NCBI RefSeq assembly: GCF_056712565.1
Contig: NZ_CM160072.1
Length of the DNA: 64,000 nucleotides
Strand: one strand, 5' to 3'
The notes under the pieces were generated by a model. The model saw nothing but the letters and a program-made list of their open reading frames with translations, made no database searches and was not told the DNA's origin. A program made the position numbers and the translations under genes. Positions 1 to 64,000 of this stretch are shown here, in pieces; the first letter of the stretch is position 1, and each line of letters begins with the position of its first letter.

Positions 1-1551
1 AACGCCGAACGCTACGAAAAAGGGGTGGCGAAAATTCTCCACCGTAGCCTGCGCTGGATTGTGATTTATGTCCTGCTGCTTGGCGGCATGGTGTTCCTGT
101 TCCTGCGTTTGCCGACGTCGTTCTTACCGCTGGAAGACCGTGGCATGTTTACTACTTCGGTACAGTTGCCCAGCGGTTCAACCCAGCAACAGACCCTGAA
201 AGTCGTTGAGCAAATCGAGAAATATTACTTCACCCATGAAAAAGACAACATCATGTCGGTGTTTGCCACCGTGGGTTCTGGCCCTGGGGGTAACGGGCAA
301 AACGTGGCGCGAATGTTTATCCGCCTGAAAGACTGGAGCGAACGCGACAGTAAGACCGGCACCTCGTTTGCCATTATCGAGCGTGCAACGAAGGCGTTTA
401 ACAAGATTAAAGAAGCTCGCGTTATCGCCAGCAGCCCGCCAGCAATTAGCGGTCTTGGTAGTTCTGCGGGTTTTGATATGGAGTTGCAGGACCACGCTGG
501 AGCGGGTCACGATGCGCTGATGGCAGCACGAAACCAGTTGCTGGCGCTGGCAGCGGAAAACCCGGAGCTAACCCGTGTGCGCCATAACGGCCTCGACGAC
601 AGTCCGCAGTTGCAGATTGATATCGACCAGCGTAAAGCTCAGGCGCTGGGCGTTGCTATCGACGATATTAACGACACACTGCAAACCGCCTGGGGTTCGA
701 GCTATGTGAATGACTTTATGGATCGCGGTCGCGTGAAGAAAGTCTATGTGCAGGCAGCTGCGCCGTATCGCATGCTGCCAGATGACATCAATCTCTGGTA
801 TGTCCGAAATAAAGATGGCGGCATGGTGCCCTTCTCTGCTTTCGCGACCTCACGCTGGGAGACAGGCTCGCCGCGTCTGGAACGCTATAACGGTTATTCT
901 GCGGTTGAGATTGTTGGGGAAGCCGCACCGGGGGTCAGTACCGGTACGGCGATGGATATTATGGAATCGTTAGTGAAGCAGCTGCCAAACGGCTTTGGTC
1001 TGGAGTGGACGGCGATGTCGTATCAGGAGCGGCTTTCCGGCGCGCAGGCTCCGGCGCTGTACGCCATTTCCTTGCTGGTGGTATTCCTGTGTCTGGCGGC
1101 ATTGTATGAAAGCTGGTCGGTGCCGTTCTCGGTAATGCTGGTCGTGCCACTGGGGGTTATCGGCGCGCTGCTGGCAACCTGGATGCGCGGGCTGGAAAAC
1201 GATGTTTACTTCCAGGTGGGCCTGTTAACGGTCATTGGTTTATCGGCGAAAAACGCCATCCTGATCGTCGAATTTGCTAACGAGATGAACCAAAAAGGCC
1301 ACGACCTGTTTGAAGCGACGCTCCACGCCTGCCGTCAGCGTTTACGCCCGATTCTGATGACCTCGCTGGCATTTATCTTCGGCGTATTGCCAATGGCAAC
1401 CAGCACAGGTGCCGGTTCCGGTGGTCAGCATGCGGTGGGTACTGGCGTAATGGGCGGGATGATTTCGGCCACTATTCTGGCTATTTACTTCGTGCCGCTG
1501 TTCTTTGTGCTGGTGCGCCGCCGCTTCCCGCTGAAGCCGCGCCCGGAATAA
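1..1551 (+). CDS. acrD: RND aminoglycoside/multidrug efflux pump AcrD, C-terminal part (5' end outside window)
   Basis: Frame open from window start to stop at 1549-1551; TM-rich RND C-terminus; K-12 neighbourhood acrD-ypfM-yffB-dapE. Confidence 0.85.
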
Positions 1552-1562
1552 GCAATAAAAAA

Positions 1563-1590
1563 GGCGACATGCCAATGTGTCGCCCTTTTC
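1563..1590 (+). terminator. Rho-independent terminator after acrD
   Basis: Hairpin GGCGACA...TGTCGCC followed by CTTTTC just after the stop. Confidence 0.5.
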
Positions 1591-1649
1591 AACTTTCCGA
1601 TTAAGAACCTGCTCAGCGGGTTCTTGCTGTTTGTACTTTGTCTCAGGAA

Positions 1650-1709
1650 TTACTTACGAAGCATAACTTCGATAAAGTCTTTCCAGTTCCCCAGTTCACG
1701 TTCAATCAT
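1650..1709 (-). CDS. ypfM: Small protein YpfM (19 aa, MIERELGNWKDFIEVMLRK)
   Basis: ATG at 1709-1707, stop at 1652-1650, RBS GAGAGG upstream; absent from ORF track (below 60 aa). Confidence 0.6.
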   Translation of the reverse strand: MIERELGNWKDFIEVMLRK

Positions 1710-2071
1710 AACAACCTCTCTTATAATTATGGGTATTCTACGGAAACAATATACCGTGGTGAAGCTAATTTACTCGATTGCTGCGATGACTACCTCCGGG
1801 GGACAAACCTTATGTAAATACTATGGTCCTGCGGTGATGATTTGTATGTGATACACCGCAACATTTCGAGATATTCATACGGCATCTAATACTGATTTAA
1901 TTCTGGTTAAAATACAGACAGATAACAAGATGAATATTCTTAATGTTTACGTTAAAAATGTTTAATGTTATTTAATAGTTGTTAATTTGAATACTTCGAT
2001 AATGTTATATTTCCTGATAATCATTTGCAGGCAAAATGTTTTCACCTTTAAATGAGTATTTATTCTCATAA

Positions 2072-2446
<375 letters not shown>

Positions 2447-2449
2447 TCT

Positions 2450-3577
2450 ATGTCGTGCCCGGTTATTGAGCTGACACAACAGCTTATTCGCCGCCCTTCC
2501 CTGAGTCCTGATGACGCAGGATGCCAGGCTTTGTTGATTGAACGTTTGCAGGCGATCGGTTTTACCGTTGAACGCATGGACTTTGCCGATACGCAGAATT
2601 TTTGGGCATGGCGTGGGCAGGGTGAAACGTTAGCCTTTGCCGGGCATACCGACGTGGTGCCGCCTGGCGACGCCGACCGTTGGATCAATCCGCCGTTTGA
2701 ACCAACCATTCGTGACGGCATGTTATTCGGGCGCGGTGCGGCAGATATGAAAGGCTCGCTGGCGGCGATGGTGGTAGCTGCAGAACGTTTTGTCGCACAA
2801 CATCCCAACCATACGGGGCGACTGGCATTTCTGATCACCTCTGATGAAGAAGCCAGTGCACACAATGGTACGGTAAAAGTCGTCGAAGCGTTAATGGCAC
2901 GTAATGAGCGTCTCGATTACTGCCTGGTTGGCGAACCGTCGAGTATCGAAGTGGTAGGTGATGTGGTGAAAAATGGTCGTCGCGGATCGTTAACCTGCAA
3001 CCTTACCATTCATGGCGTTCAGGGGCATGTTGCCTACCCACATCTGGCTGACAATCCGGTACATCGCGCAGCACCTTTCATTAATGAATTAGTGGCTATT
3101 GAGTGGGATCAGGGTAATGAATTCTTCCCGGCGACCAGTATGCAGATTGCCAATATTCAGGCGGGAACGGGCAGTAACAACGTTATTCCAGGTGAACTGT
3201 TTGTGCAGTTTAACTTCCGCTTTAGCACCGAACTGACGGATGAGATGATCAAAGCGCAGGTGCTTGCCCTGCTTGAAAAACATCAACTGCGCTATACGGT
3301 GGATTGGTGGCTTTCCGGGCAGCCATTTTTGACCGCGCGCGGTAAACTGGTGGATGCGGTCGTTAACGCGGTTGAGCACTATAATGAAATTAAACCGCAG
3401 CTACTGACCACAGGCGGAACGTCCGACGGGCGCTTTATTGCCCGCATGGGGGCGCAGGTGGTGGAACTCGGGCCGGTCAATGCCACGATTCATAAAATTA
3501 ATGAATGTGTGAACGCTGCCGACCTGCAGCTACTTGCCCGTATGTATCAACGTATCATGGAACAGCTCGTCGCCTGA
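2450..3577 (+). CDS. dapE: Succinyl-diaminopimelate desuccinylase
   Basis: 375-aa ORF, M20 peptidase family motifs, synteny. Confidence 0.95.
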
Positions 3578-27973: not shown

Positions 27974-27994
27974 CATTCATAGTGCAGGGTCAAA

Positions 27995-28009
27995 TCATTC
28001 CCACTCAAT
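27995..28009 (-). other. Displaced guaA 3' end (codons IEWE-stop) = prophage attachment core at junction
   Basis: TCATTCCCACTCAAT reverse-translates to ...I-E-W-E-stop then diverges into phage DNA; 9-bp inverted repeat CACTCAATT/AATTGAGTG at 28002-28038. Confidence 0.55.
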
Positions 28010-28119: not shown

Positions 28120-28602
28120 CTATCTGGTCAAAGTGTCGTACTGTTTTTCGCAGACTCTTCCGGCTTCGGCTGCCCGGTCAGCATACTCTGCCAGTTGTCT
28201 GTTTCTCTCGAGAGATTTGCTGAGCACGTCGGCAAGCAAAACTCCGGTGTCTGCGGCTGACGACCCAGCGCCGACAATGGCGTTATACTGCCTGAGCTGC
28301 TCACGGATGGCAAAGAGTTGTTGCTGCAACCGGCCAGCGCTAGCGGCAGCATCAAGAGCATCATTGCGCGCCTGGTCGATCCTCTGCTGAGCTTCACGTT
28401 CATTGGTCACTTTCTCCTGTTCGTAGTACTGACGAACTTTGTCTTCTTCGGCTTTGCGGTCTTCTTCCGCCTGAGCATACCCGGCATCGTACTGGCGACT
28501 GCCGTGTATATTCCAGGCAACCACTCCTGATATGACCAGAACAGCAAGCACTGCCACGATAAGCAACTGTTTCCAGTATGCTTTCACGAATGCCTTGATC
28601 AT
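28120..28602 (-). CDS. Rz-like i-spanin
   Basis: N-terminal TM anchor then charged coiled-coil; last gene of lysis cassette. Confidence 0.6.
   Translation of the reverse strand: MIKAFVKAYWKQLLIVAVLAVLVISGVVAWNIHGSRQYDAGYAQAEEDRKAEEDKVRQYYEQEKVTNEREAQQRIDQARNDALDAAASAGRLQQQLFAIREQLRQYNAIVGAGSSAADTGVLLADVLSKSLERNRQLAEYADRAAEAGRVCEKQYDTLTR
28128..28364 (-). CDS. Rz1-like o-spanin lipoprotein, embedded in Rz in the +1 frame
   Basis: MMLLMLPLALAGCS lipobox; fully nested within Rz. Confidence 0.5.
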   Translation of the reverse strand: MMLLMLPLALAGCSNNSLPSVSSSGSITPLSALGRQPQTPEFCLPTCSANLSRETDNWQSMLTGQPKPEESAKNSTTL

Positions 28603-28823
28603 ATACTTACCTTCGGCTGAAATCGGCGAACGTTAATTGGCTCACCATATGGCCATGACCAATTCAGCCAGGTAAATGTTTTCAGCTCGCACATCGCATC
28701 GAAAAATTCACCAGGATCGATGTCGGAATAGCTGCAAACTATTTCCAGACCACGTTCTGTTTCTTGCAAAGCAACTGTATCTGTTTCCCAGCGGGGAATG
28801 AGCAAAGAAAATAGTTTATTCAT
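28599..28823 (-). CDS. Hypothetical 74-aa protein, translationally coupled to endolysin
   Basis: ATG 28823 overlaps endolysin stop; RBS AGAAGG; no TM. Confidence 0.4.
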
Positions 28824-29446
28824 AAAAGCACCTTCTTGGCCGAAAGATACCGTACACGCCGGTCGTCGATACCGTTTCTGCCACCATTGATAATCAGAGT
28901 TACACGTGCAATATCGCCGGTATACTTCATGCATCCTTTGCTGGCGAAGAACCACGCCGCGCTACGAGCCGCATATTCGTCCTGCGCCAGCAGTTCAGGG
29001 CTCTCCAGCAGGTCAACCTTCAGACCGTTTCCGCAATCACGATAGTTATTCAAACCGGTAATCTGGATAAGTCCGCGCCCTCGGTAATTCCAGCCATCAC
29101 CAGGGGCATTGTTCCCCATGCGTTTGCTGTATACCAGATTTGCGATCGCGCGCTGGCGCTCAAGTGGCAATGGTGGTTCACCAGCACGGCGCCCCAGTGC
29201 ATTAGCCTGCCCCTGAGTGAGACGCCCAGCCCGAACGAAGTTAGCCAGTCCGCTGACACTGTAGTTGAAATTCTCCTGCAACCTGGTGAAGCCCCCAGAC
29301 TCATGCCCGACTTGAGCAATAAACATTGCCTGATCTTCTGCTTTGCTGATACCAAACTCTTTCATCGCAGAAGTTATATGCGAGAACCAGCGTGCGGCCA
29401 GTGCCTCGCTGATACCAGCAGCTCGCTGGAATTGTTTAATCTCCAT
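28820..29446 (-). CDS. Endolysin, glycoside hydrolase family 19-like
   Basis: [12 protein letters not shown]...[12 protein letters not shown] chitinase-class motifs; start ATG 29446 with RBS GAGGT; track extension to 29611 rejected. Confidence 0.75.
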
Positions 29447-30135: not shown

Positions 30136-30416
30136 ACTTTCTCCTGTTTACTATCTATAAGCCAGTCAATTATTGATGACTAACTTCGCATAGTAAACCA
30201 TATATGAATCATTATTGTTCCATATCATATATCTCAATAAAAGTACTAATGATTTTACAGAACGAGCCAGCAGAGTGAGGGCAGTTGTACAGGAACCATA
30301 GACTTAATTTTGTATTTAATAATGCTATGGTGTAATAAACCTGAACATGTATTTAAAATACGTACTGATTCATGATAGAATTCAAAGATAACTTTTCACA
30401 AACTCCGTTTTTGATA

Positions 30417-30445
30417 CCCGCAAAATATTGCGGGCTTTTTTTTAA
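30417..30445 (+). terminator. Plus-strand rho-independent terminator abutting tailspike stop
   Basis: CCCGCAAAATATTGCGGG followed by CTTTTTTTTT. Confidence 0.4.
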
Positions 30446-33400
30446 CGTTCTTCCAGAGACTGAATCCGCTCTTTTATCTTATCCATTTCTCTGCGCTGCC
30501 ATGCTGCCTCGATATAGAATAAGAGATCAGGTCTGACCCCCCATCTAGATCCTGCTGGCGTTATTTCAACGCGCTCAATGATGTCTTCTATTACCATCAC
30601 TGGATTATCATCCTCATCAACAATGATGCTCCCGTCATTATCAGTCAGCGGCATTTCCCTTTGGCCAGTAATGACGTCATCATATACTGCGGGATAATCG
30701 TCATAGCAAAGAAAGGCATAGCGGCATGTTGTGCTTTCTTCTTCCATGAGTCCGTGAGAAATAAGAACATCACGAAGTTGCTGCGCGATTACACCATGAT
30801 GTATCCTCGCCCCTTCTTCCCCCTTTATAGCGACAGCGTTCAGCCATTTATAAGCGATATACCTGACGTCACCCCAGGCATCCAGCAATGCTTCGTCAGG
30901 AGAGACCGGCTCTGTCTTTAATGTTCCGTCACTGGTAACCACAGGATTGGAGCCAAGATAAACTGTCGAGAACCTGTTTCCCGGACCACCAAGAGCATTT
31001 ACATTATCAAGATAAGGTTTAACATCTCCGTTCTCAAAAAGATGTTCGAGTGCGTTATATACCGCGCGACGTGGAGTACTGCTTCCGGAACCATGCAACG
31101 TTATCATTGCACCATCTGCTGAAGACGTTGTTTCACCTCCGCTAACGATTAATCTCTGAGCGGTAACATCATCAGACGGTACTTTCTTCGCAATAATGGC
31201 GTAATTACCCTCAAGTTTGACTTCCGCGCGAACTTGTCCTGATGTACCTGCATGGACAGTCAGTGACTGGACGGCAACATCATCTGTGAAATCAACGGGT
31301 ACAGGAACCGTCCTCACGCCTGACGTCGACATAAAAGTAGGAAGCGTTCTGTTAGGAGTGGCTCCGTAGACAAAATCCCTTGAAACAAATTCTTCCTGTT
31401 TAATTTTCACCCTGAAACAATACAAATCAGCCGGGTGACCATCGTGAACATAAGGATATTTTCTGTTGTTATCCCCTATGCTCCATGGGTTTAGAAAGTC
31501 TTCCCCACCGAAAATGTAGTACAGCCAGTTGTCTTTGATACAAACTGAACCAACACCAACCGCAGAGTTAACTATTCCGCCCTGATAAATCTGATCAGTA
31601 ACATTAACCCACTCTACATTATCCAGACTCCACTCATTGACGTTAACTCTGGTCATAAATGTTCTTGGATAATTTCCTGCATAACGGTTATCAGGTTCTC
31701 CTCCTTCCCACTCACCAAATGCGCGCTCACTGCCAAAAATAATCAGCTCATCGCCAACTTTGGCAAAAGGAAGGTTTGAGTGATGAACATTATTTGGGAA
31801 GCGAAGAGAATTCCATGATGTACCTAAATCAGAGCTTCTGTGCAATGAACTACCGGGTTGAGTACTTAATGTCCCCCTGGTCGTCAGATACAGAATGCCA
31901 TCATAATATTTTACACATGGCTCAGATGCATTCGCCTCATATTCTGCAGGTATGCGTCTGCGAACAAAGCTACCAGGAGAACCGAAAGCATCAGAGAAAT
32001 AGAGTATCCCAAGCTCGCGTGGACCAATATCACCATTATGGTAGCCAACAGCAAAACTGTTATCGCTAATCGTCGCAAAACTGTGAATCTCAGTAACAGG
32101 AGTGCTTCCGTCAACAAAAGAAGGAATAGTTCCAAGACTGGTTTTTCTCCATGGTGACGAGTGAAATGATGTACCAAAACTCCAGTATCTACCCTCGTTA
32201 TTCTGATCCACATCCTGAGTATTTTGCGTCGTAACTGTAAAAGTATTTTTATCAATAACAGTAGTCACCGTCATATTCCCGGTAACACCTGTAACACCAG
32301 AGTTTGAGAAGTTGACAAAATCACCAGCAAATAATCCGTGATCAGTAATGCGAATATAAGCGACTTGCTGATTTGCTGCTTTCGTTATACCACCATAAAC
32401 GCGAAGGCTGCGACTCATTGGGCGATCCCACAACTCTGCAACCTGCAGTTTATTTCCTCTCACGGTCCGCGTCTCAATTACAGCAAAAAGGCGATTTCTG
32501 ACAACCCCCATACTCATGCAGTGATAGTTAACTGTGGGATAGTTTTCATGTAAATCTGTAAGCCATTCCGGCGTTGTCCAGGTCTTCCCGTCATCTCCTG
32601 AGCGAACCCATGCAACATGGAGGTTATTTACACCATGGCGGTCTCCAGCCATAAAAGGCGCATAGATGACATTGTCATATACAAACGTTTTATCCTGCGT
32701 CCAGGCGTTGTACCACGGTGTATCTGTAATTTTAAATAACTCTCCCTGGATAAAATCTTCAGAAGCATAAAAAAGAGGCTGGCCCGGTATTCTCTCAAAT
32801 AAAAAACGAGCATTTTTAAATCGACTGACATCCGGAAGAGTTGATACTTTAAAAGTAAGCCCTAATCCGTCAATTTTATAACCTGGAGATGAGGCTTCAA
32901 GGCACGCGCTTATTGCAGTGGAATCGTCATTTATACCATCACCAACAGCTCCAAAATCTTTGGGGCTAATAGCATCACGCATTTTATCCTGGAACGTTCG
33001 GTACACAGCCCCAGAACCATACTGAATAAACCAACCAAAACCACCAACAACCCCGGCGATTGCAGCATCGACATAATTACGCATTGAGCGATTATTTACA
33101 GCGTCCTGCTCAAATGATGGATCTGCAAGGTTAGAAATTTTGTTTTGCTTTGCATCGTAATATTTTGCAAGCAAAGATGGTTTCATCAATGCACGTCTGA
33201 ACCACCCAAAACATTGCTGGATCAGCATCGTCAGGTAGTCAAAGGCATCTTCATGCACTTCGGGGAAAAATTTTCCCTGATTGCGAAGGTCTGTCTCCTG
33301 CACTACATCAAGCACACGATCTATCGTAATTCGCCATCCAGTAGCAAGCGGAGACGGAAGAACCACAGAACCGCCACTATAAGTGCCCGCCCCAGTTACC

Positions 33401-33561
33401 GTATAACCGGTATCCAGGACCAATTCTGTTACGTTCCCGTTCAGGTCAGACACCTGAACAACCAGGTCTGATTTTCTGAAAATTCGAAAAGTATACGGAA
33501 ACGATGTCGTAACGCCGTTACCGGTGTATTCGTTGTGGTCAACTTCGGTTGAGACCGTCAT
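30442..33561 (-). CDS. Tailspike protein with Asp-box (BNR) beta-propeller-type central domain
   Basis: 1039 aa; conserved phage tail-fibre N-terminal domain; two SxDxGxTW motifs (SGDDGKTW, SSDLGTSW); RBS GGAG. Confidence 0.8.
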   Translation of the reverse strand: MTVSTEVDHNEYTGNGVTTSFPYTFRIFRKSDLVVQVSDLNGNVTELVLDTGYTVTGAGTYSGGSVVLPSPLATGWRITIDRVLDVVQETDLRNQGKFFPEVHEDAFDYLTMLIQQCFGWFRRALMKPSLLAKYYDAKQNKISNLADPSFEQDAVNNRSMRNYVDAAIAGVVGGFGWFIQYGSGAVYRTFQDKMRDAISPKDFGAVGDGINDDSTAISACLEASSPGYKIDGLGLTFKVSTLPDVSRFKNARFLFERIPGQPLFYASEDFIQGELFKITDTPWYNAWTQDKTFVYDNVIYAPFMAGDRHGVNNLHVAWVRSGDDGKTWTTPEWLTDLHENYPTVNYHCMSMGVVRNRLFAVIETRTVRGNKLQVAELWDRPMSRSLRVYGGITKAANQQVAYIRITDHGLFAGDFVNFSNSGVTGVTGNMTVTTVIDKNTFTVTTQNTQDVDQNNEGRYWSFGTSFHSSPWRKTSLGTIPSFVDGSTPVTEIHSFATISDNSFAVGYHNGDIGPRELGILYFSDAFGSPGSFVRRRIPAEYEANASEPCVKYYDGILYLTTRGTLSTQPGSSLHRSSDLGTSWNSLRFPNNVHHSNLPFAKVGDELIIFGSERAFGEWEGGEPDNRYAGNYPRTFMTRVNVNEWSLDNVEWVNVTDQIYQGGIVNSAVGVGSVCIKDNWLYYIFGGEDFLNPWSIGDNNRKYPYVHDGHPADLYCFRVKIKQEEFVSRDFVYGATPNRTLPTFMSTSGVRTVPVPVDFTDDVAVQSLTVHAGTSGQVRAEVKLEGNYAIIAKKVPSDDVTAQRLIVSGGETTSSADGAMITLHGSGSSTPRRAVYNALEHLFENGDVKPYLDNVNALGGPGNRFSTVYLGSNPVVTSDGTLKTEPVSPDEALLDAWGDVRYIAYKWLNAVAIKGEEGARIHHGVIAQQLRDVLISHGLMEEESTTCRYAFLCYDDYPAVYDDVITGQREMPLTDNDGSIIVDEDDNPVMVIEDIIERVEITPAGSRWGVRPDLLFYIEAAWQRREMDKIKERIQSLEER

Positions 33562-33665
33562 GTTAAATCTCCAGATAGTCGCAGCACCCGTTGCGCCGCA
33601 TATCTGGTTATTCTATTACCTGAAAAACCACATATGGATAAAAGGACTATAAATACCAATAGATA

Positions 33666-33756: not shown

Positions 33757-34014
33757 ATGCAGCAGTATCACTATCCACTGGAAGACGGATTTACCGAAAG
33801 GATTCACACGCCGGGAGGCGTCAGATCACTGGTGGAGGGATCGCTCTTGATGAAATTACTCCGGGATCTCGATAAGGATGGATTTAATGTCGATGGCCCA
33901 CTTGCCGAACTGACTGCACTGATTAACTACGTCACCAGCTCACAGATGTCTATGCGGGATCTGCAAACACATCTCGACTATTGTGCCGAACAATTACGAA
34001 AACAAACCAGATAA
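33757..34014 (+). CDS. Small antirepressor-like protein (85 aa), paralog of the Ant C-terminal domain
   Basis: MQQYHYPLEDGF...; aligns with C-terminus of the BRO-N protein; RBS GGAGAAG; track start 33634 is an extension. Confidence 0.55.
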   Translation: MQQYHYPLEDGFTERIHTPGGVRSLVEGSLLMKLLRDLDKDGFNVDGPLAELTALINYVTSSQMSMRDLQTHLDYCAEQLRKQTR

Positions 34015-34060: not shown

Positions 34061-34326
34061 ATTTACATCGCACTCCTCTTGTGCCATAGTAATCGGGCAC
34101 TGGCAAAATCCAGTGCCGGGATTGGCGTCCCGAGTTACTACAGAGGCACATATGCCGCATAAGCGGTTTTTTTATGTGTAAAGCGCACCTATTCTATGGT
34201 GGGCTGTGTGGGGGCACCGAAAGGTGCGCCGGGTCCTTTGTAGCCGGTTACGCCAACCCTGCACAGTTCACCACCAACCGATTGGCGTCGGTAGTGGTGA
34301 TTAACCTAACTACAAAGGTGATCGCC

Positions 34327-35019
34327 ATGAATACCAAACCTTCCATCTTTTCCTTTGAGTCATCCTGCCAGATCCGTATGTTCATGATTGACGGAGAACC
34401 TTGGTTTGTCACCAAAGATGTGTGCAATGCTTTGAATATTGATGTTACACAAGCGAGAAAACTTGATAAAAAAGGCTGGAACAAAAAGGGGCTGTATTCA
34501 ATACAGACCCCTGGTGGAATACAAGAACTATCCATCGTTTCAGAATCAGGTCTCTACATCCTTATTCTGCGTTGCAAAGAGGCAATGACTGAGGGAACGA
34601 GAGCATTCAGATTTCTTGAATGGGTTACAGGCGAAGTACTTCCTCAGATCCGCCGCACCGGAAGCTACATTAAAAACTCGCTCCCGCAGGAAGAACGCAT
34701 AAAGATGGTTGCCGACCAGGTAGCCAACGCCACGGCGTCAGCAGTAATGCAGGCGATGAAGATAGAGAACAAAACCTACAGCGCCCCACTGAAGCCCGGC
34801 TACCGCAGCCTGATTCATTCGCCGTCTGGTGTTCTCGGCCTGACGGAGAACTCACTGCTGATGAATCTGCTGAACCAGTTACAGGAAGACGGGCACGACG
34901 TATCGGGCGCGGCGGCGGAGCTGACCACCATGTTCTGCTACATCGTCGGTGTGAGCAAGTGCCTGCGTGATATCCAGACGCACGCGGAGTACATCAACGA
35001 CAAGGCTGGGTTCTTCTGA
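34327..35019 (+). CDS. Antirepressor, BRO-N N-terminal domain plus Ant-type C-terminal domain
   Basis: GEPWFVTKDVCNALNI...GLYILILRCKEA...EWVTGEVLPQIRRTG BRO-N signature; ATG 34327 with RBS AAGGTG. Confidence 0.75.
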   Translation: MNTKPSIFSFESSCQIRMFMIDGEPWFVTKDVCNALNIDVTQARKLDKKGWNKKGLYSIQTPGGIQELSIVSESGLYILILRCKEAMTEGTRAFRFLEWVTGEVLPQIRRTGSYIKNSLPQEERIKMVADQVANATASAVMQAMKIENKTYSAPLKPGYRSLIHSPSGVLGLTENSLLMNLLNQLQEDGHDVSGAAAELTTMFCYIVGVSKCLRDIQTHAEYINDKAGFF

Positions 35020-36088: not shown

Positions 36089-36649
36089 CTACATTGATAT
36101 ATGATTCATAAAGTAGCTTAAAGATTTACTTCCCAGAAAAGAAATTTCTTTTCCTGGATATGTCGCAATAATTGAGCATGACTTATCCCCGTTAGAGGTA
36201 ACAAATCCTGAATAACCTACTTGTTCTTTACCATTTTGTTGCTTGGCTAAAAAGTAGAGGTAGCTTATCTTTTTGCCCTCTGGGTAAAACTCTGCCAAAC
36301 CAGTATCGGTGATTGAATATTTTATTCTCCCGCCTTGAGTAACGTTTTCCATCTCAAGTTTAGCTATGTCTTTTCTGTTGTATTCAGCATTGATTTTCCT
36401 TTCGAAATCAATGTTGTTTTCAAATGAGTAGGAAGCAACAGTCTGAATAGATGGGAACACGTTTATCTGGATGCCCCCACAGTCGGCACAGGTATAAAGG
36501 TATGAATCAGATGGAATCCCCATAAAAGAAAACTGAGTTACCTTAAATTTATCGCTATCTCCAAAGTATTGAAGTTCGCATTTAACATTTTGCCCTGCAA
36601 AAGAAAATGCAGACATCAATATTGAAACAAAAAATATAATTGCCTTCAT
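36089..36649 (-). CDS. Secreted Cys-containing protein (186 aa), AT-rich moron at end of virion operon
   Basis: Signal peptide MKAIIFFVSILMSAFSFA; ATG 2 nt after stop of upstream gene. Confidence 0.55.
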   Translation of the reverse strand: MKAIIFFVSILMSAFSFAGQNVKCELQYFGDSDKFKVTQFSFMGIPSDSYLYTCADCGGIQINVFPSIQTVASYSFENNIDFERKINAEYNRKDIAKLEMENVTQGGRIKYSITDTGLAEFYPEGKKISYLYFLAKQQNGKEQVGYSGFVTSNGDKSCSIIATYPGKEISFLGSKSLSYFMNHISM

Positions 36650-36651
36650 TA

Positions 36652-39204
36652 TTATTTACCTAGCATGAACTGCGATGGTGGGATCAGAAAGTCGTTCCCC
36701 TGCTCACGCTCAACACGGCGCTGATAACGCTCAAGAGAGCCTGGGTCAAGGGCATCTTGTATCCGGTTCAATATTAAACCATTCATCGCCGTACGAAGCC
36801 AGAACACGTTGAGGAATGGCGTATTGTCAAGTGCCGTGCGATACCAGTCACCCAAATCTGCATCCCCTCTCGTGGTCTGCTGGAGCAGCGTGATAATGCT
36901 GTCAGCGTTCGATGCTGCTGGCCCCATTAGCGACGTAACCGGCCCGGCCCCCATGCGGTTGACCTCACCAAACATGAAGTCACCCAAGATGCCAAGACCG
37001 CCCCCCTGAGATGCGGCTGCGAGAAACGTCTTGGCATCTGCCGGGCGTGGTGTTTGCCCTTTCAGCATGAGTTTTGACTGCATGGAGATATAACCAAACA
37101 TAGTCGCCCAGACAAAGAGGTTTGCAGCACCAAGGAAAGCCCCCTTCCCGTTACGTAGCAGCGCATTCGTCAGCGATCCGGTTTTCGACTCACCAAGCCC
37201 AGCAGGAATATAACCACGCCCGAATACTTCGCGTCCTAGTACGTTCTGCATGAAGCTTGCAGTGAACGATTTGTACTGACCAGCGAATCGTATTGCTTCC
37301 CCAGCCACCGTTCCTGGCACCGTGCCCATCTTCATAAACGCCTGCGTGCGATCGCCAGGCTCTGACATGGCGATATTCAGACGGTCAAGGATGTAGCCGC
37401 GCAACTGCCCTTCCAATTGATCGCGTGCGTCAGCGATAGCGCGCTGCGTTGGTTTGATCCCCTTACTCTCTACATAACCGGCAATCACTTCGTCAGGCAC
37501 GCCGCGGATGCCGCTGGTCGTCATGAACTTACGACCTTCGCTATCGGCCATGTCCATGTTGCGAAAAATTTCCCACTCACGTTCGCCAATACCGTGCAGA
37601 TCCAGCACGCGTCGCAGGTCTTCCGGTAGCCGCGCATGAGACTGGTCAGCATTCTTTGCAAGCCAGTTGGTTATCATCATGGCGTTGCTGTTGCGACCGC
37701 TCTCGGTCCAGAAGTTCATGAGGTTGTACTTAAAGAAAAGCTGCTGCGCGCGACCAAGCTTTCCATTCAGCGTGTCATCACCAGATATGCGCCGGATGAT
37801 TTCCTGCGTCATGGAGTCGGAATAAACTCCGATAGAGGAAAGGATCTCTTTCTGCTCCGCGCTGTTGTAACGCGTGAAGCGGCCTCTCATAGCACCAAGC
37901 AACGCCTGCATAAAATTCTGCCCTTGGTAGCGCATCTCGGTAGCGGCGATAGGCACGTCGTTAAACGATGAGATTACCGCGCCACCAAGTTGGCTCATAC
38001 GCAACCAGCCGCGTACAGCCGCCGACGCATTGGCCCAGCCTACGCTGCCAGGAATATTTAGCGAGCCGTCAACCTGCGGCATTACGGTACGGTTAATGCG
38101 ACGCACCTTCGTCATGTAGTCAGCCAACGCTGCCGGTCTTCCGGATTTGCTGATATCTTCAGCAATGGCGTCCGTCAGGTACTTAAACATGTTCTGTGGG
38201 TTAGTGCCCAGTACGCGCATCATGCCCGTTGTGCGGGCAGCGCTGTTTAAGCCACCAAACAGCGCTTCTCGCAGGCTGCCGGTGCCGAATTGCTGGTTGT
38301 ACTCGTGCCACGAGATACCATCTTTGAAGTGCAAAATTCGCTCTTGGCTGGCGCGTTTAGCTGCGTTCGCCGATCCCTTAAAGCCATTCATCCAATCGGG
38401 CTTTTCAGATGTAAGATGCACGCCGGAAGCCAGCCCGTTATAAATGTTACGCATGAACTGCTCGCGGTCAGCCACGCCGTCAAAAGTGCGCTCATCAAGG
38501 CGCGGGAGAATAGCATTTCGCCATGCTTCATAACCTGCGGCGCGGATCTTCATGATGTCGTGTGACTGGCGCACTATATAGCCCGGCTCTTTGCGTATCC
38601 ATGCCCCGGCGCGGTTCTCATCAATGCGCGCAGTTTCCTGCCATTTCATGATGATTTGTGCAGCGCTTACGGATTGCTTTGTCATACCGTCAGTTGACTG
38701 CCCGCGCCCTATGCGCCACATTGCATCGGCAATTTCCCGGTCATTGCTGCCGCTGGCGATGAATTGCACCAGCCCGGCACGGTCAAAATCGTAGTTGATA
38801 CCGGAATGATACTTGCCGCGCAGTTGCGCCACCTCCGAAGATACCGACCGGCGGGCGCCGGTACGCGCATCGTTGCGGCCAACCAGCATTGCTTCAAGCC
38901 CGATATCCGGGCGGTCTTTCCAGATAGTACGAAGCTCTCTAAGTCGTTGTGCGGCAATACGGGCGTCGATTGCCTTATTGCGAGCCTCAATCTGTTTTGC
39001 CAGCATATCGGCATTGCTCAGTTCTTCCGCTGCGCGCATCGCGGCCTCTTCCAGAGACAGCGCCTCATTGGTCGCCAGAATTCGCCTAGTGGTGTCGTTC
39101 ATGTCACGCACCAGCGACTCCATCTCATCGGAAGAAAGCTCGCGACCAGCGGCAGCATTTACACTGCGCTCGCACTGCGTCAAAAATTCGTTTGCTGCCA
39201 TCAC
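36652..39204 (-). CDS. Large internal virion / DNA-ejection protein (850 aa)
   Basis: Position between tail-tube-like genes and tailspike; overlapping starts/stops with neighbours. Confidence 0.55.
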   Translation of the reverse strand: MMAANEFLTQCERSVNAAAGRELSSDEMESLVRDMNDTTRRILATNEALSLEEAAMRAAEELSNADMLAKQIEARNKAIDARIAAQRLRELRTIWKDRPDIGLEAMLVGRNDARTGARRSVSSEVAQLRGKYHSGINYDFDRAGLVQFIASGSNDREIADAMWRIGRGQSTDGMTKQSVSAAQIIMKWQETARIDENRAGAWIRKEPGYIVRQSHDIMKIRAAGYEAWRNAILPRLDERTFDGVADREQFMRNIYNGLASGVHLTSEKPDWMNGFKGSANAAKRASQERILHFKDGISWHEYNQQFGTGSLREALFGGLNSAARTTGMMRVLGTNPQNMFKYLTDAIAEDISKSGRPAALADYMTKVRRINRTVMPQVDGSLNIPGSVGWANASAAVRGWLRMSQLGGAVISSFNDVPIAATEMRYQGQNFMQALLGAMRGRFTRYNSAEQKEILSSIGVYSDSMTQEIIRRISGDDTLNGKLGRAQQLFFKYNLMNFWTESGRNSNAMMITNWLAKNADQSHARLPEDLRRVLDLHGIGEREWEIFRNMDMADSEGRKFMTTSGIRGVPDEVIAGYVESKGIKPTQRAIADARDQLEGQLRGYILDRLNIAMSEPGDRTQAFMKMGTVPGTVAGEAIRFAGQYKSFTASFMQNVLGREVFGRGYIPAGLGESKTGSLTNALLRNGKGAFLGAANLFVWATMFGYISMQSKLMLKGQTPRPADAKTFLAAASQGGGLGILGDFMFGEVNRMGAGPVTSLMGPAASNADSIITLLQQTTRGDADLGDWYRTALDNTPFLNVFWLRTAMNGLILNRIQDALDPGSLERYQRRVEREQGNDFLIPPSQFMLGK

Positions 39205-40898
39205 ATCCCCCGGTTAATCATACAGGCGGCAAATGCCCGGAAAGCGTTGCTCATGCTATTGTCGCTGGCGTCGGCACGAATATCATTGAGTTTCTGGCGC
39301 AACGTGGTCGCAAGATCAGGGTTATCGACAGCGATATCGTCAAGCAGGGCGTTACTCAGGTTGAGCTCGTTATCAAGGTCTGCAGCGGCAGCGGTAATTT
39401 CATGATCTGCCTTTTGCGTTTCTTGATAAACCCGATCGGCTGTTTCGCTTGCTGGGCGAGCCGTTTCATCAACCTGCCGTGCCGGGTTCTGTATGCGATG
39501 GATGGCGCGTTCACGCAGTGCTGGTTTGTGCAGTTCATAGAAGGGCTCAACATCTGGGCTACGTCCTTCCATCATGTGTGCCAGCGCAGCGCGATACGCC
39601 TGCTGGTTCACGTTCCAGTCAGCATCCCTGATGGCGCTTGCGGCAGTGCGAACTGCGCCAGCGACCGGCGACATCTGCATGCCGTCCAGGATCTGCTGCG
39701 CACGCTCGGAAATGGTGACTTTCAGGTCGTCGGGGATCTCGCCGCGGGAAATCTGAGACTGGCGCCAGCGCGCCTGCTCTGCTGTCGCGTTCTGCTCCAG
39801 CGATGTGTTGATCTCCTGATTGCGTGCAGCGATGGCGTCTTTCTCGGCCTGAATCTCTTTCAGTGCCCTAGAGCGCGCATCCTTAAACTTCATCCGCTGC
39901 CCCTGATACTTTTTGGTGCGCTGCTGCAGCGTCGCATCAAGCGAGTCAGCATGACGTTGATTAGCCGCAAGCTCGGCACGCAGGTCGGCAACGTTACCGA
40001 TCTGCCCGCTCTGTAACTCCTGCTGGCGCGCCATATAGTCAGGAACCACGTCGTCATAAGCCCGGCTGTATGCGTAGCTCTCCGCTTCACTGGAAATGGC
40101 CGCCGCCAGATCTGCGTTAGCGCCAACCTCAGGGATATTCACGCCCGCCGGAATGTTGTCAGGCGTTATCACCGGGGTTGGCTGCGCATCGCCAGAAAAC
40201 GCCGGGGACTCTCCCGTTGCAGCATCGGGAACGCGACGCGGTCGCACGATATCGGCGATAAGGCCGCCGCCGGCATGCATTAGACCGCCAGCCATCGTGT
40301 TAAAGAAAGTACTTTCCAACGCGTTGCTATAGGTGAAGTCGTCACCTTCCGCCGCCGCTGCCAGCCCGGTAAGCGGCACGGTCACCAACGCCTGCGCTGC
40401 CCCCATGCGTGCACCAGCAACAAATCGCTCGCCAAATCGGCCAAGCACAGAAGCCGCCTTTGCTTCTCCAGCGAACGGAACCAGCGCCAGCGCCACGTTA
40501 CCAGGATCTGCCATTGAACCAGCTAGGCTGGCTGCGAAATTAAGCGGCGTGGCTACCCACCCGCTCGGTGCCGACATCGCGATCTGCTGGCGTGCCAGAG
40601 AATCTTTGCGTTCGGCAATAACATGATCGAGAAAAGCCTGCGTAACGCCAGAATCTGGCACGTTTATGCTCTTTACGCCGTACTGCTTCAGGAGCTCATC
40701 CGCTTCCTGCTTACTGATAACTGTAGAGTTTGGGTCATTCGCCAGCGAGTCGGCCTGCGCAAAGCGGTAGCCGGACATGACCGGCCCCTCTTCAAATCCC
40801 TGCTTAAGGGAAGAAAGCAGCGATTCGCCAAGCCCTGCTGGCGCGTTGCCAATTGGCTGGTTAATTCCCTGTCCCGGATCATCTGTGTAAATTGGCAT
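39201..40898 (-). CDS. Internal virion / ejection protein (565 aa)
   Basis: Ala/Gly-rich with coiled-coil C-terminus; coupled to flanking genes. Confidence 0.55.
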   Translation of the reverse strand: MPIYTDDPGQGINQPIGNAPAGLGESLLSSLKQGFEEGPVMSGYRFAQADSLANDPNSTVISKQEADELLKQYGVKSINVPDSGVTQAFLDHVIAERKDSLARQQIAMSAPSGWVATPLNFAASLAGSMADPGNVALALVPFAGEAKAASVLGRFGERFVAGARMGAAQALVTVPLTGLAAAAEGDDFTYSNALESTFFNTMAGGLMHAGGGLIADIVRPRRVPDAATGESPAFSGDAQPTPVITPDNIPAGVNIPEVGANADLAAAISSEAESYAYSRAYDDVVPDYMARQQELQSGQIGNVADLRAELAANQRHADSLDATLQQRTKKYQGQRMKFKDARSRALKEIQAEKDAIAARNQEINTSLEQNATAEQARWRQSQISRGEIPDDLKVTISERAQQILDGMQMSPVAGAVRTAASAIRDADWNVNQQAYRAALAHMMEGRSPDVEPFYELHKPALRERAIHRIQNPARQVDETARPASETADRVYQETQKADHEITAAAADLDNELNLSNALLDDIAVDNPDLATTLRQKLNDIRADASDNSMSNAFRAFAACMINRGM

Positions 40899-40899
40899 G

Positions 40900-43521
40900 T
40901 TATCGTCCTGATTGCTGGCCGTTCTGGAAAATGTTAATCAGGTTGTCGCGCTGACTTTCTGCGCTGTATTCCTTAGACTGTCCGGGAGTATATTTCACCG
41001 GAGTATCAATGAACTTGGTAATGCTGTTCCATACTGATCGGTTGGTTGTTCCCAGTTTCGCCAGATCGTTGAACGGCACCGTAATCGGGTTGCCGTCGGC
41101 ACCGTTGACGATCAGCCCGTTGAGCATCAGGGTAAGTCCTGTTTCGTCGCTGTTGGTAACCCACTGCGCATTATCACGAATGCGGGAGATACTCTGCTCA
41201 CGGTTGACCTCATCAGGTAGCCTTGGGTCACCAATAAGCGGCATAATCTGATCTGCTGACAGGTTTTTCAGATACGCATTGGCACCATCGTTAACGTCAC
41301 GAATATCTATCCCTGCACGCTTAGGTAGCCGCCAAGTGCCATTGGTCTGGTACTGCTCGCCGAGGATGTCCTGATACGCCTGTTTTGCTGCATCAGACGC
41401 CGACATTCCGCGCTGCATGTTGATGTAAGTAAGTCGTTTTCCCTGCTCGTTGAAGTTATTCCACACGGCAGTGCCACCAGGCTGAACAACCATCGTGCAA
41501 GCAAAATCTTTCGATTGGTCATTCCATGACGAGTCGGCGCTATCCGCGTCGGTTTTCTCAAGACTGCCGCGTAAGTCAGCAGTTTTAACGCTACGGTTTT
41601 GCCAGAGCGCATTTGCCGCGCGCGGGTTCTCGGTAGCCATGACAACCTGCAACGCAGGATAAGCGCTCTTCTGAACCTGCTGCATCACCTGATCCGAGTA
41701 TTTGCCGAACGACTGCGCCACCGACTGAATGGCCTTTACGCTAGATTCCTGCGTGTTGTCAATACGCTGCAGTACGTCGTGGACCATGGACTCCGGTAAA
41801 ACTTTTTTGCTCATTATCCCCAGGCGGTCTTTTTCAGACTGTATGCGGGAAACTAGGTATTCACCAGATGAAGGGTCATTCAGGTACTGCTGGAATGCAG
41901 CCTGCACAACCGGAGAGTTTTGTTGCAGCCATGCCCCCGGATCCGCTTCCCGCGCCTTCAGTACCTGCCCAAGCTTGACCTTTGCCGATGCATAAAGCTC
42001 TGCTTTGTATTTAAAGTCAGGGTCGTTTTCCTGCGGTGCCATTGCCTGCACGGCGGCGGTACCCTGCTGGACGTTGCCCTGCATAATGGTCTGATAAACA
42101 GGTTGTAGCGTCATTGCCTGCTGGTATTGCTGGAAGGTTTTTTCCATCTGCAGGCGCTCGGCAGGCGCTGCCTGAAGCGGCATAACGGCGGCCCATTCGT
42201 GCGCTGAAATAGGCGTCACCTGCTTACCGGCCTCAATTTTGGATAGGTCGTCCTGCATTCGACTCTGTAGCGCAACGCGACCGGCTGAAGCCTGCATGTC
42301 GTACATGCCAGCAACCTTGCTCATCATCTGCGACTTTTTGTCCGGACTCATGGCGTTCCAGAATGGCTGTGCGATGAGGTTTTCCATCGTCGCAGATCCA
42401 GGAATAGCTCCAGCACTGCCAGTTACTTTTGCCACATAATTGCGCGTCTCGTCGTATGGGATAGCTGCGGCAAACTGGGCGTTACTGACTTCGCCTGTGC
42501 GCGGATCGCCAATCTGTTTAATCCAGCCGTCAACCTTTCCTGGGCCAGCGTTATAGGCAGCTACTGCCAGAACCGGGTTATTGTCGTATTTCTTCATCTG
42601 CGCGCCGAAATAAGCTTGCCCCAAGCGGGCATTATAGCGCGGGTCATTCAACCATTTATCTCGGTCCCACGGCACGCCAGCAAGGCGGGCAGCTTCGGGG
42701 CCAGTATCTTCCGTCACCTGCGCTACGCCAACAGCGCCTTTTGGCGACACCAGAGGTGTTCCGTCCTTTCCGTACTGATTTCCGCCACTCTCCTGCCAGA
42801 TTATTGCAGAGAATAACTGCGCCTCACTCGGTGTATCGGTTACCTCAATCTTGCCGTTCGGACCCATCATCTGTTGATACATCGGCACATACCACGCCTC
42901 CGCCGCACCGTTCGCGGCATTCTCGCGCCACGAAACCCAGTTCTGTTCGATCTCTTCCTGACTCTGGCCGTGGGCTTCGCCGTAAGCGATGATGCTATGA
43001 TATGCCTTCAATCCTGCCTGGTTTGCCATTGTCGGGTTACGGAACTGCATCGATAGGTTTTTTAGTGTCGCATCCTGCATATCCGCCTCATACTGGCGAA
43101 CCTGTCCTATTTCGTACCTCCCGGCCTGCGTAGCGAACTGAATACGCTGCTGCTGCGCCTGCTGCATGAAAGCATTACGAGCCTGTTCATCCGGCAGCGA
43201 CATAGCCAGTTGTTCGATCTGAGCATCAAACTGCTGTGTATACTCATGGCCTTTTCCAATAGCATTTTTCCCTTTCAGGTTAAGCAATCCTGTTTCAGGA
43301 TTATTCAGCAGATCGCTGCTTATCTGACTGAGGTTAAGAGATGCCTCCTGAGCCAGAGCGATATTGGCACGCTGTTTTGCCTGCCCCAAAACATCAATTG
43401 CCTCTGTCCCTGCCCGAACAAAAGCATCACCAATACCTGGCTGAGAAAACGTCTGCAAGCCTGCTGACTGAACTCCACGACTCTCAACCTGACGTCCGGA
43501 TACTGTTGGTACGACTGGCAT
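40900..43521 (-). CDS. Internal virion protein with lytic transglycosylase (SLT) domain
   Basis: WQESGGNQ...AYNAGPG motifs; start ATG 43521 with RBS GGAGG overlapping upstream stop. Confidence 0.7.
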   Translation of the reverse strand: MPVVPTVSGRQVESRGVQSAGLQTFSQPGIGDAFVRAGTEAIDVLGQAKQRANIALAQEASLNLSQISSDLLNNPETGLLNLKGKNAIGKGHEYTQQFDAQIEQLAMSLPDEQARNAFMQQAQQQRIQFATQAGRYEIGQVRQYEADMQDATLKNLSMQFRNPTMANQAGLKAYHSIIAYGEAHGQSQEEIEQNWVSWRENAANGAAEAWYVPMYQQMMGPNGKIEVTDTPSEAQLFSAIIWQESGGNQYGKDGTPLVSPKGAVGVAQVTEDTGPEAARLAGVPWDRDKWLNDPRYNARLGQAYFGAQMKKYDNNPVLAVAAYNAGPGKVDGWIKQIGDPRTGEVSNAQFAAAIPYDETRNYVAKVTGSAGAIPGSATMENLIAQPFWNAMSPDKKSQMMSKVAGMYDMQASAGRVALQSRMQDDLSKIEAGKQVTPISAHEWAAVMPLQAAPAERLQMEKTFQQYQQAMTLQPVYQTIMQGNVQQGTAAVQAMAPQENDPDFKYKAELYASAKVKLGQVLKAREADPGAWLQQNSPVVQAAFQQYLNDPSSGEYLVSRIQSEKDRLGIMSKKVLPESMVHDVLQRIDNTQESSVKAIQSVAQSFGKYSDQVMQQVQKSAYPALQVVMATENPRAANALWQNRSVKTADLRGSLEKTDADSADSSWNDQSKDFACTMVVQPGGTAVWNNFNEQGKRLTYINMQRGMSASDAAKQAYQDILGEQYQTNGTWRLPKRAGIDIRDVNDGANAYLKNLSADQIMPLIGDPRLPDEVNREQSISRIRDNAQWVTNSDETGLTLMLNGLIVNGADGNPITVPFNDLAKLGTTNRSVWNSITKFIDTPVKYTPGQSKEYSAESQRDNLINIFQNGQQSGR

Positions 43522-52816: not shown

Positions 52817-52893
52817 GTGGCATTAGCTCAGTTGGACAGAGCAACCGCCTTCTAAGCGGTTGGTCGCAGGTTCGAATCCTGCATGCCACGCCA
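52817..52893 (+). tRNA. Phage-encoded tRNA-Arg, anticodon UCU
   Basis: Cloverleaf by hand: acceptor GTGGCAT/ATGCCAC, D-arm GCTC/GAGC, anticodon stem ACCGC/GCGGT, loop CTTCTAA, T-arm GCAGG-TTCGAAT-CCTGC, CCA end. Confidence 0.85.
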
Positions 52894-63957: not shown

Positions 63958-64000
63958 ATGAAAGGTGCATTAGGTAAGAAGGAACTCCTGGCGGTGGTGC
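63958..64000 (+). CDS. Start of next early gene (truncated by window end)
   Basis: ATG 63958 (MKGALGKKELLAVV) with RBS AGAGAGG. Confidence 0.3.
   Translation, partial: MKGALGKKELLAVV

Follow-up and report, generated by a model that had tools for sequence, protein, structure and literature searches.

The tailspike encoded by the prophage in this stretch of DNA (64,000 nucleotides in all, hereafter the window) is, judging from its sequence, almost certainly an endo-N-acetylneuraminidase (endosialidase, GH58) of an epsilon15-like temperate podovirus integrated in the E. coli chromosome. Residues 205-876 share 65.7% identity (E value 0; 665 aligned residues) with the crystallised K1F endosialidase (PDB: 1v0e/3gvl), and because this identity to crystal structures extends over 665 residues, the K1F fold is expected. 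A further match was obtained with the endosialidase of phi92 (PDB: 4hiz; E value 7e-271), and five Pfam domains, four of endosialidases and one S74, follow one another in the canonical order. The NCBIfam scan of the whole protein matched no family. The earlier note had suggested a receptor-destroying enzyme of the sialidase fold, a proposal that is borne out by the K1F and phi92 structure matches, four full-length Pfam domains and conserved catalytic residues. The protein is already known, being annotated in RefSeq as an endosialidase-domain protein and published; since it is virtually identical to that protein, the tailspike is real but ordinary.

The tailspike gene and its closest relatives

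30442..33561, minus strand: tailspike coding sequence, endosialidase precursor of 1039 aa without interruption, with ATG start and TAA stop (ORF list)
33569..33572, minus strand: GGAG Shine-Dalgarno sequence, 7 nt 5' of the ATG (direct sequence reading)
30417..30434, no strand assigned: GC-rich hairpin, 8 nt past the tailspike stop codon (terminator scan and sequence)

The open reading frame that the earlier note had assigned to a tailspike was thus found uninterrupted on the minus strand. Because the hairpin at 30417..30434 has a T-run on the plus strand and an A-run on the strand of the tailspike gene, it may function as a bidirectional terminator. Among phages, only ZX5-type records match the 3' spacer (30136-30480).

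At the DNA level the gene is 99.8% identical to the tail gene of phage vB_EcoP_ZX5 and 99.9% identical to APECO1_RS13980 of APEC O1. Both products are likewise 1039 aa long: the ZX5 tail protein ORF7 (QTH80017.1) is 1 aa apart (I991M, in the chaperone domain predicted to be released), and the APEC O1 protein (WP_000218907.1) is 2 aa apart. The ZX5 phage is a viable temperate Uetakevirus isolated on an O87:H52:K1 strain, for which the same three tail-protein domains and the K1 host have already been described (Pathogens 2022, PMC9782041). The neighbourhood is shared with ZX5 and APEC O1, with an antirepressor upstream and two holins, a GH19 endolysin and a DUF2514 spanin downstream, although 220 nt are inserted between the endolysin and spanin genes of the window's prophage.

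The catalytic propeller

32749..32949, minus strand: endosialidase N-terminal extension, aa 205-271 (Pfam End_N_terminal, E value 1.9e-31)
31399..32748, minus strand: predicted catalytic six-bladed beta-propeller, aa 272-721 (Pfam End_beta_propel, positions 1-367 of 367, E value 8e-233)
32578..32601, minus strand: Asp-box 1, SGDDGKTW, aa 321-328, aligned to SGDDGQTW of K1F
31813..31836, minus strand: Asp-box 2, SSDLGTSW, aa 576-583, aligned to SRDIGQTW of K1F
32635-32637 (H309), 32017-32019 (R515), 31921-31923 (E547), 31876-31878 (R562) and 31723-31725 (R613), minus strand: predicted catalytic residues of the propeller, from the K1F alignment

The prototype of GH58 is gp17 (endoNF) of the lytic phage K1F (PDB: 1v0e, 3gvl, 3gw6), which has the same domain order as the tailspike described here but comes from a lytic T7-like instead of a temperate epsilon15-like background. 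The N-terminal extension is 56.7% identical to that of K1F and 76.1% identical to that of CUS-3, while the propeller (aa 272-721) shares 70.4% identity with the K1F propeller, the structure of which is known. Exactly two matches to the strict pattern S.D.G..W are present in the 1039 residues (about 0.0095 occurrences would be expected by chance from the protein composition). The two Asp-boxes pointed out in the earlier note are therefore both present, and both align with the Asp-boxes of the K1F endosialidase. The five predicted catalytic residues H309, R515, E547, R562 and R613 are identical in the alignment to H350, R549, E581, R596 and R647 of K1F, which are key catalytic residues and highly intolerant of substitution in a preprint reporting a deep mutational scan of K1F (PMC12632334). 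Identity also extends to K1F Q330, D331, H527, S528, K585, N699, R837, S848, T910, S911 and K916. Together these features point to a six-bladed sialidase-type propeller fold with two Asp-boxes.

The inserted barrel and the stalk

32167..32415, minus strand: predicted beta-barrel inserted in the propeller, aa 383-465 (Pfam End_beta_barrel, positions 1-83 of 83, E value 3e-46)
30934..31398, minus strand: predicted trimeric stalk, triple beta-helix with a putative polySia-binding site, aa 722-876 (Pfam End_tail_spike, positions 1-160 of 160, E value 1.5e-77)

The K1F counterpart of the inserted beta-barrel is a polySia-binding site (PMC12632334). In the stalk, the alignment to PDB 1v0e reaches the last residue, T876, and the K1F residues R837 and S848 are conserved as R803 and S814, whereas K1F Q853 is replaced by M819. 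The full-length Pfam matches thereby indicate a lectin-like barrel and a triple-beta-helix stalk carrying additional polySia-binding sites. Compared with K1F, the tailspike in the window also contains a 7-residue insertion, FVDGSTP, at aa 476-482, and has G369 in place of K410; the changes at K410 and Q853 are both found in CUS-3 as well, and substitution of K410 was tolerated in the K1F mutational scan (PMC12632334).

Relationship to CUS-3 and the probable substrate

30471..32863, minus strand: catalytic cassette in common with siaK1 of CUS-3 (gene nt 699-3091, 99.4% DNA identity)

SiaK1 of CUS-3 (ABQ88383.1), a P22-like prophage of E. coli RS218, corresponds to the tailspike over propeller, barrel, stalk and chaperone, with divergence at aa ~194-232 and in the last 9 aa. 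The earlier note had proposed a K1-type capsule as the target if the enzyme was of the sialidase type, and this agrees with a predicted mature protein that is identical to that of ZX5, an isolate from a K1 strain, and 98.7% identical to SiaK1 over aa 233-1030.

A shifted substrate for the same endosialidase fold, namely O-acetylated K1 polySia or mixed alpha-2,8/2,9 K92 instead of plain alpha-2,8 polySia, was considered as well. The enzyme body is just 65.7% identical to endoNF and bears the K410 to G369 and Q853 to M819 replacements, and according to the K1F scan, modifications of the capsule, O-acetylation among them, play a part in how hosts are discriminated (PMC12632334). Moreover, among the genomes listed, most of those in which the best match is annotated as an endosialidase-domain protein have at least two places that match the gene; one of these is presumably a CUS-3-type copy, and in CUS-3 there is a repeat locus for the neuO O-acetyltransferase. 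However, the active-site residues are all those of K1F, the near-identical CUS-3 enzyme has a GenBank record in which endo-alpha-sialidase activity is backed by direct-assay evidence, a K1 strain is infected by ZX5, and nothing in the analysis favours another linkage specificity. We consider a shifted substrate very unlikely and retain plain alpha-2,8 polySia of the K1 capsule as the probable one. Downstream of the tailspike, where CUS-3 has its neuO poly-psi repeat locus, the prophage of the window has the lysis cassette, and no AAGACTC heptanucleotide repeats of the CUS-3 type were found in the window.

The C-terminal chaperone domain

30445..30933, minus strand: predicted C-terminal intramolecular chaperone domain, aa 877-1039 (Pfam Peptidase_S74 and PDB 3gw6)
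30931-30933 (Ser877) and 30916-30918 (Lys882), minus strand: predicted autoproteolysis site T876|S877, a T|S-x4-K motif aligned with K1F

The region following the stalk matches Pfam Peptidase_S74, 'Chaperone of endosialidase' (aa 877-937; E value 3e-10), and the endoNF chaperone domain (PDB: 3gw6; aa 757-1038; E value 1.4e-93). It is 53.9% identical to the chaperone domain of K1F, an enzyme that likewise has the two Asp-boxes, the catalytic residues and the T|S...K site. In the alignment, T876|S877 and K882 match T910|S911 and K916 of K1F, and in the K1F record AM084414 gp17* is annotated to end at aa 910 and gp17-CTD to begin at aa 911. Acidic residues prevail in the C-terminal 163 aa, which contain 34 D/E and 17 K/R. 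Schulz et al., in 2010, reportedly described the role of a Ser-Lys dyad at the cleavage site of the endosialidase CTD. Residues 877-1039 can accordingly be classed as a CIMCD of the S74 type, homologous to the endoNF CTD with its Ser-Lys dyad. The chaperone-like module that the earlier note had suspected in the acidic C-terminus thus gains support from the Peptidase_S74 and 3gw6 matches and the conserved T|S...K motif.

By close homology, we infer enzymatic activity, trimer formation and cleavage. Three chains would assemble into a trimer, docked on the phage tail through the N-terminal ~200 aa (a beta-sandwich and a coiled-coil neck). The inserted barrel and the stalk would offer extra polySia sites that keep the virion on the capsule while digestion proceeds toward the outer membrane. 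As an intramolecular chaperone, the C-terminal 163 aa would nucleate the trimer of the stalk, and would then be lost by self-cleavage at T876|S877 involving Ser877 and Lys882.

The prophage

27993..28009, minus strand: att core ATTGAGTGGGAATGATT, prophage end, an exact match to the published attP/attB core of ZX5

The epsilon15-like prophage spans from this att core, which is shared with ZX5 and APEC O1, to beyond position 64000. It appears to be a complete Uetakevirus prophage, with the lysis cassette downstream of the tailspike, ejection proteins, capsid, portal, terminase and the att core. A stretch of 11.6 kb covering the tailspike and the divergent ejection module found no end-to-end counterpart among complete genomes, the best match reaching 97% coverage at 97.9% identity. 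There is hardly any chance that the prophage is cryptic and its tailspike a decaying relic, intact in appearance but no longer used or active. The prophage does have a mosaic make-up, its ejection-protein module (36092-43106) and some early genes being unlike those of ZX5 and APEC O1, and the window stops short of the integrase; but the 3120-nt ORF is free of interruptions, its product is only 1-2 aa from the copies in 71 genomes and a viable phage, all functional residues are kept, and the neighbouring structural and lysis genes are intact ORFs.

The N-terminal anchor and its joint to the enzyme

32965..33561, minus strand: predicted epsilon15/Uetakevirus-type virion-anchor module, aa 1-199; beta-sandwich and helical neck by homology

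The N-terminal region was found in 132 phage records (tblastn), with 97.5% identity to the 'eliminase' of EC.W1-9 and 64-72% identity to epsilon15-like Salmonella and O157 phages such as VB_ST_E15, SPN1S and O157 typing phage 10. PHROG tail-protein families with varied C-termini all match aa 1-~166/204 (E values down to 1e-140), and other heads are joined to the same anchor in E. coli prophages. These matches indicate an epsilon15/Uetakevirus-type anchor of ~165-200 aa, common to the tailspikes of the group whatever their enzymatic head. The earlier note was therefore right in describing a widely shared tail-fibre anchor, but its length of 120 aa was an underestimate. The sole PDB sequence match for the anchor is Dpo31, the tailspike of the marine podovirus Carin-1 (PDB: 8ck1/28lx; aa 1-184; E value 1.5e-32). 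Its D1-D2 domains are homologous to the anchor, D1 being a beta-sandwich at the virion base, and it sheds a C-terminal domain of ~18 kDa. In contrast to the predicted sialidase propeller of the window's tailspike, the heads of Dpo31 and of the epsilon15/phiV10 group are beta-helix depolymerases of O-antigen or EPS.

The same N-terminal domain was labelled T7-like in the ZX5 paper (PMC9782041). The T7/K1F adaptor (Phage_T7_tail) gave no Pfam match in aa 1-200, even at E values up to 10, and no significant similarity was detected by BLASTP between the anchor and aa 1-246 of K1F gp17 (E value 0.45). A T7 gp17-type adaptor is thus rejected by sequence (Pfam, BLASTP and phmmer against PDB), although remote structural kinship is possible.

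The DNA identity with EC.W1-9 stops near gene nt 578-596. The junction between anchor and enzyme modules contains, within aa 205-271, the motif GAVGDGINDD, and the joint of cassette and anchor lies at the conserved DFGAxGDGxxDD, a motif that also starts the heads of beta-helix depolymerases. A pectate-lyase-type beta-helix depolymerase with coincidental Asp-box-like motifs, which the earlier note had named as contrary to its own proposal, is refuted: its marginal Pfam match (Pect-lyase_RHGA_e, 21 residues, aa 201-221, E value 0.043) lies on this motif, and sister phages do fuse the same anchor to beta-helix or 'eliminase' heads, but the motif forms part of the End_N_terminal domain and recurs in K1F and CUS-3, and the matches to endosialidase crystal structures (E value 0) and Pfam families are full-length.

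Cassette exchange and distribution

On sequence grounds, the endosialidase gene is best described as a mosaic, an epsilon15/Uetakevirus-type anchor (aa 1-~199) fused to a CUS-3-type endosialidase cassette. The N-terminal adaptor of CUS-3 is unrelated, being a P22-type head-binding region and not of the epsilon15 type. A cassette of at least 99% identity is thus carried by two unrelated temperate chassis, the P22-like CUS-3 and the epsilon15-like phage of the window, and both chassis copies appear to be co-resident in some of the genomes listed. No new mechanism emerges from this copy, which is one more example of how phage lineages are known to exchange their receptor-destroying heads as modules. 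Two further ideas, that DFGAxGDGxxDD is a general recombination joint by which heads are swapped across folds, or that the G369/M819 variant is tuned to a capsule O-acetylated through neuO, are regarded as improbable.

In E. coli of neonatal meningitis, in avian-pathogenic strains and in many urinary ones, virulence is determined mainly by the K1 polysialic-acid capsule. Endosialidases find use both as reagents for polySia and as therapeutics directed against the capsule. No kps or neu genes were found in the 64-kb window. The practical value of the tailspike gene is that of a marker, suggesting a source strain that is a K1-type host or a descendant of one. The full gene is present in 71 complete E. 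coli genomes, and the same cassette, at a coverage of at least 80%, in 180 of 5426; K1-labelled strains, for example the O1:K1:H7 APEC strain E16002, are among those that carry the gene.

Architecture and fold of the tailspike

The tailspike gene (30442..33561, minus strand) is an uninterrupted open reading frame of 1039 codons in the ORF list of the window. The Asp-box pattern S.D.G..W occurs in its strict form twice in the protein, the chance expectation from composition being approximately 0.0095. The ORF list and the pattern count thus bear out the two-box reading frame from which an earlier note had proposed a sialidase-fold enzyme with a chaperone-like C-terminus. In Pfam, the canonical endosialidase architecture is complete.

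Features of the tailspike gene and its protein
7 nt ahead of the ATG, ribosome-binding site GGAG (read from the sequence)
aa 205-271, End_N_terminal (Pfam E value 1.9e-31)
aa 272-721, End_beta_propel (model 1-367/367; Pfam E value 8e-233)
aa 321-328, Asp-box 1, SGDDGKTW (strict pattern)
aa 383-465, End_beta_barrel, inserted in the propeller (Pfam E value 3.2e-46)
aa 576-583, Asp-box 2, SSDLGTSW (strict pattern)
aa 722-876, End_tail_spike (Pfam E value 1.5e-77)
aa 877-937, Peptidase_S74, 'Chaperone of endosialidase' (Pfam E value 3.3e-10)

In phmmer searches of the PDB, residues 205-876 match the crystal structures of the K1F endosialidase (endoNF; PDB: 1v0e, 3gvl, and mutants) with an E value of 0, and the endosialidase of phage phi92 (PDB: 4hiz) is matched with an E value of 7e-271. 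Residues 757-1038 match the C-terminal intramolecular chaperone domain of endoNF (PDB: 3gw6; E value 1.4e-93). The sialidase fold is supported by the first of these matches together with the full Pfam set, and the chaperone-like C-terminus by the Peptidase_S74 and 3gw6 matches. A pectate-lyase-type beta-helix depolymerase is ruled out: the full endosialidase architecture is opposed by one trace only, a marginal 21-residue Pfam match (E value 0.043) on a GDGxxDD motif that is present in the K1F and CUS-3 endosialidases too.

Catalytic, binding and cleavage residues

The protein was aligned with K1F gp17 and with SiaK1, the endosialidase tailspike of prophage CUS-3. A deep mutational scan of the K1F enzyme named five key catalytic residues, H350, R549, E581, R596, and R647, at which substitution is very poorly tolerated (PMC12632334). 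All five are kept, as H309, R515, E547, R562, and R613, respectively, as are the second-shell residues Q330, D331, H527, S528, K585, and N699 and the stalk residues R837 and S848 (K1F numbering). K1F Q853 is replaced with Met and K410, a position tolerant to mutation in the scan (PMC12632334), with Gly; CUS-3 SiaK1 carries both substitutions. Only these two changes and an apparent co-residence with CUS-3/neuO would fit a shift in specificity, possible but improbable, with O-acetylated polysialic acid or K92 as the substrate.

The annotation of the K1F record ends mature gp17* at residue 910 and begins the chaperone domain at 911. The K1F cleavage motif NPIVT/SNGERK aligns with NPVVT/SDGTLK, and from this boundary and alignment autoproteolysis is predicted between T876 and S877, with K882.

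To judge from close homologues, the trimeric spike would dock to the short tail via its N-terminus, sites in the beta-barrel and stalk would bind polysialic acid chains, and the propeller active site would cut alpha-2,8 linkages endolytically, so that the virion could bore its way through the K1 capsule. The triple-beta-helix stalk would depend for its folding on the C-terminal chaperone, which would then cleave itself off at the predicted site. Over residues 233-1030 the tailspike is 98.7% identical to CUS-3 SiaK1, an enzyme for which GenBank records activity on direct-assay evidence, and the mature sequence is identical to that of the viable K1 phage ZX5; from these sequence identities we infer activity, trimerisation, and cleavage.

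Relatives and distribution

The gene has 99.8% identity with that of the temperate phage vB_EcoP_ZX5 (ZX5; genus Uetakevirus), and the proteins differ by one residue, I991M, in the chaperone domain predicted to be released. The APEC O1 protein differs by two residues. At a coverage of at least 80%, the gene is present in 71 of 5426 complete E. coli genomes, and the 25 best-listed complete genomes all carry it in full (99.7-99.9% identity). A decaying remnant is therefore unlikely, since the reading frame is intact and near-identity extends across the 71 genomes.

ZX5 ORF7 has been described as containing N-terminal tail-fibre, endosialidase, and endosialidase chaperone domains, and the phage was isolated on an O87:H52:K1 host (PMC9782041). 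Among the genomes listed, the RefSeq name is 'endosialidase catalytic beta-propeller domain-containing protein'. Because a near-identical protein is published and RefSeq annotates it so, the finding had already entered both the literature and standard annotation: this is a known endosialidase tailspike, from a Uetakevirus prophage of the ZX5 type in K1 E. coli. Homology, conserved residues, and near-identity to ZX5 and CUS-3 support the overall interpretation of the earlier note.

N-terminal anchor and mosaic construction

Residues 1-166/204 are matched by many PHROG tail-protein families with differing C-termini (E values down to 1e-140). By tblastn the module is present in 132 phage records (Escherichia, Salmonella, Klebsiella, Pseudomonas, Xanthomonas, Pelagibacter, and others), the most distant matches spanning residues 1 to ~125. 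Its sole solved relative by sequence is Dpo31, a marine podovirus tailspike (E value 1.5e-32, residues 1-180), in which D1, a beta-sandwich of residues 8-87, lies at the virion base by cryo-EM and is followed by the coiled-coil D2. An anchor of 120 residues had been suggested; the PHROG, tblastn, and Dpo31 matches uphold its nature, but the module covers about 200 residues. A T7/K1F gp17-type adaptor was sought in the N-terminus and gave no Pfam match and a BLASTP E value of 0.45 against K1F gp17; by its sequence, the anchor is not of that type.

Nucleotides 1 to ~578 of the gene (residues 1 to ~193), together with the region upstream, share 98% identity with phage EC.W1-9. The tail protein of that phage runs on into an unrelated 'eliminase' head, and similarity to EC.W1-9 is not regained until the holin gene, which lies 282 nt beyond the stop codon. 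Over nucleotides 699-3091 (residues 233-1030) the gene has 99.4% identity with siaK1 of CUS-3, a P22-like prophage whose N-terminal adaptor is unrelated to the present anchor. The ~120 nt between these blocks, the gene's final 29 nt, and the ~300-nt 3' spacer are matched among phages only by ZX5-type records. The joint falls at (K/R)DFGAxGDGxxDD, a motif common to both kinds of head, and other E. coli prophages carry the same anchor and ejection genes with different heads.

The catalytic cassette alone is found in 180 of 5426 complete genomes, and at 261 places in 193 genomes. Several of the genomes listed have at least two places, presumably one epsilon15-type and one CUS-3-type copy; the range is 2-4 separate places (ExPEC XM 4, PU-1 3). 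In M15 and NCTC11151 the matched stretch, in two joined pieces, overlaps an annotated IS element (IS903B, IS3-family transposase), which suggests that the cassette is interrupted there.

Prophage context

Positions 1 to ~28000 of the window are E. coli chromosome (acrD ... dapA ... ppk/ppx ... yfgI). An epsilon15-like prophage extends from the att core to past 64000, its integrase end and guaA lying outside the window. The published ZX5 core is located at the 3' end of guaA (PMC9782041).

Features of the prophage
27993-28009, att core ATTGAGTGGGAATGATT, exact copy of the ZX5 core, at the prophage end adjoining yfgI
34324-35019, plus strand, BRO-N/Ant antirepressor gene (ORF)

An isrK Hfq-binding RNA (34097-34173, plus strand; Rfam, 74 bits) and a C4 antisense RNA (34192-34278, plus strand; Rfam, 79.5 bits) lie directly upstream of the antirepressor gene; together they resemble a c4-ant immunity module under RNA control, in the style of P1/P7, in an epsilon15-like prophage. 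Beside the tailspike start, a divergent 85-aa ORF (33757-34014, plus strand) matches phrog_450, as does the C-terminal ~80 aa of the adjoining antirepressor, and seems to be a duplicate of that domain standing by itself.

The ejection/internal virion protein module (36092-43106, minus strand) has ORFs of 850, 565, and 898 aa, among them one for a protein with an SLT transglycosylase domain. It differs in allele from ZX5 and APEC O1 and is 99.9% identical to other E. coli prophages bearing non-sialidase tail heads, a piece of mosaic exchange unconnected with the tailspike. A stretch of ~220 nt (28599-28826, minus strand) separates the GH19 endolysin gene from the DUF2514/Rz-like spanin gene; it is missing in ZX5 and APEC O1, and the phage collection has hardly any match to it. 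Its 74-aa ORF (28599-28823) matches phrog_2241, a family without known function, and the lysis cassette carries the stretch as a small moron. A tRNA-Arg (anticodon TCT; 52817-52893, plus strand) lies between the portal region and terminase; the annotation of the APEC O1 copy includes it too. The tailspike stop codon is followed after 8 nt by a perfect GC-rich hairpin of 7 bp (30417-30434), which has an A-run ahead on the gene strand and a T-run on the opposite strand, and may be a terminator both ways or for the opposite strand only.
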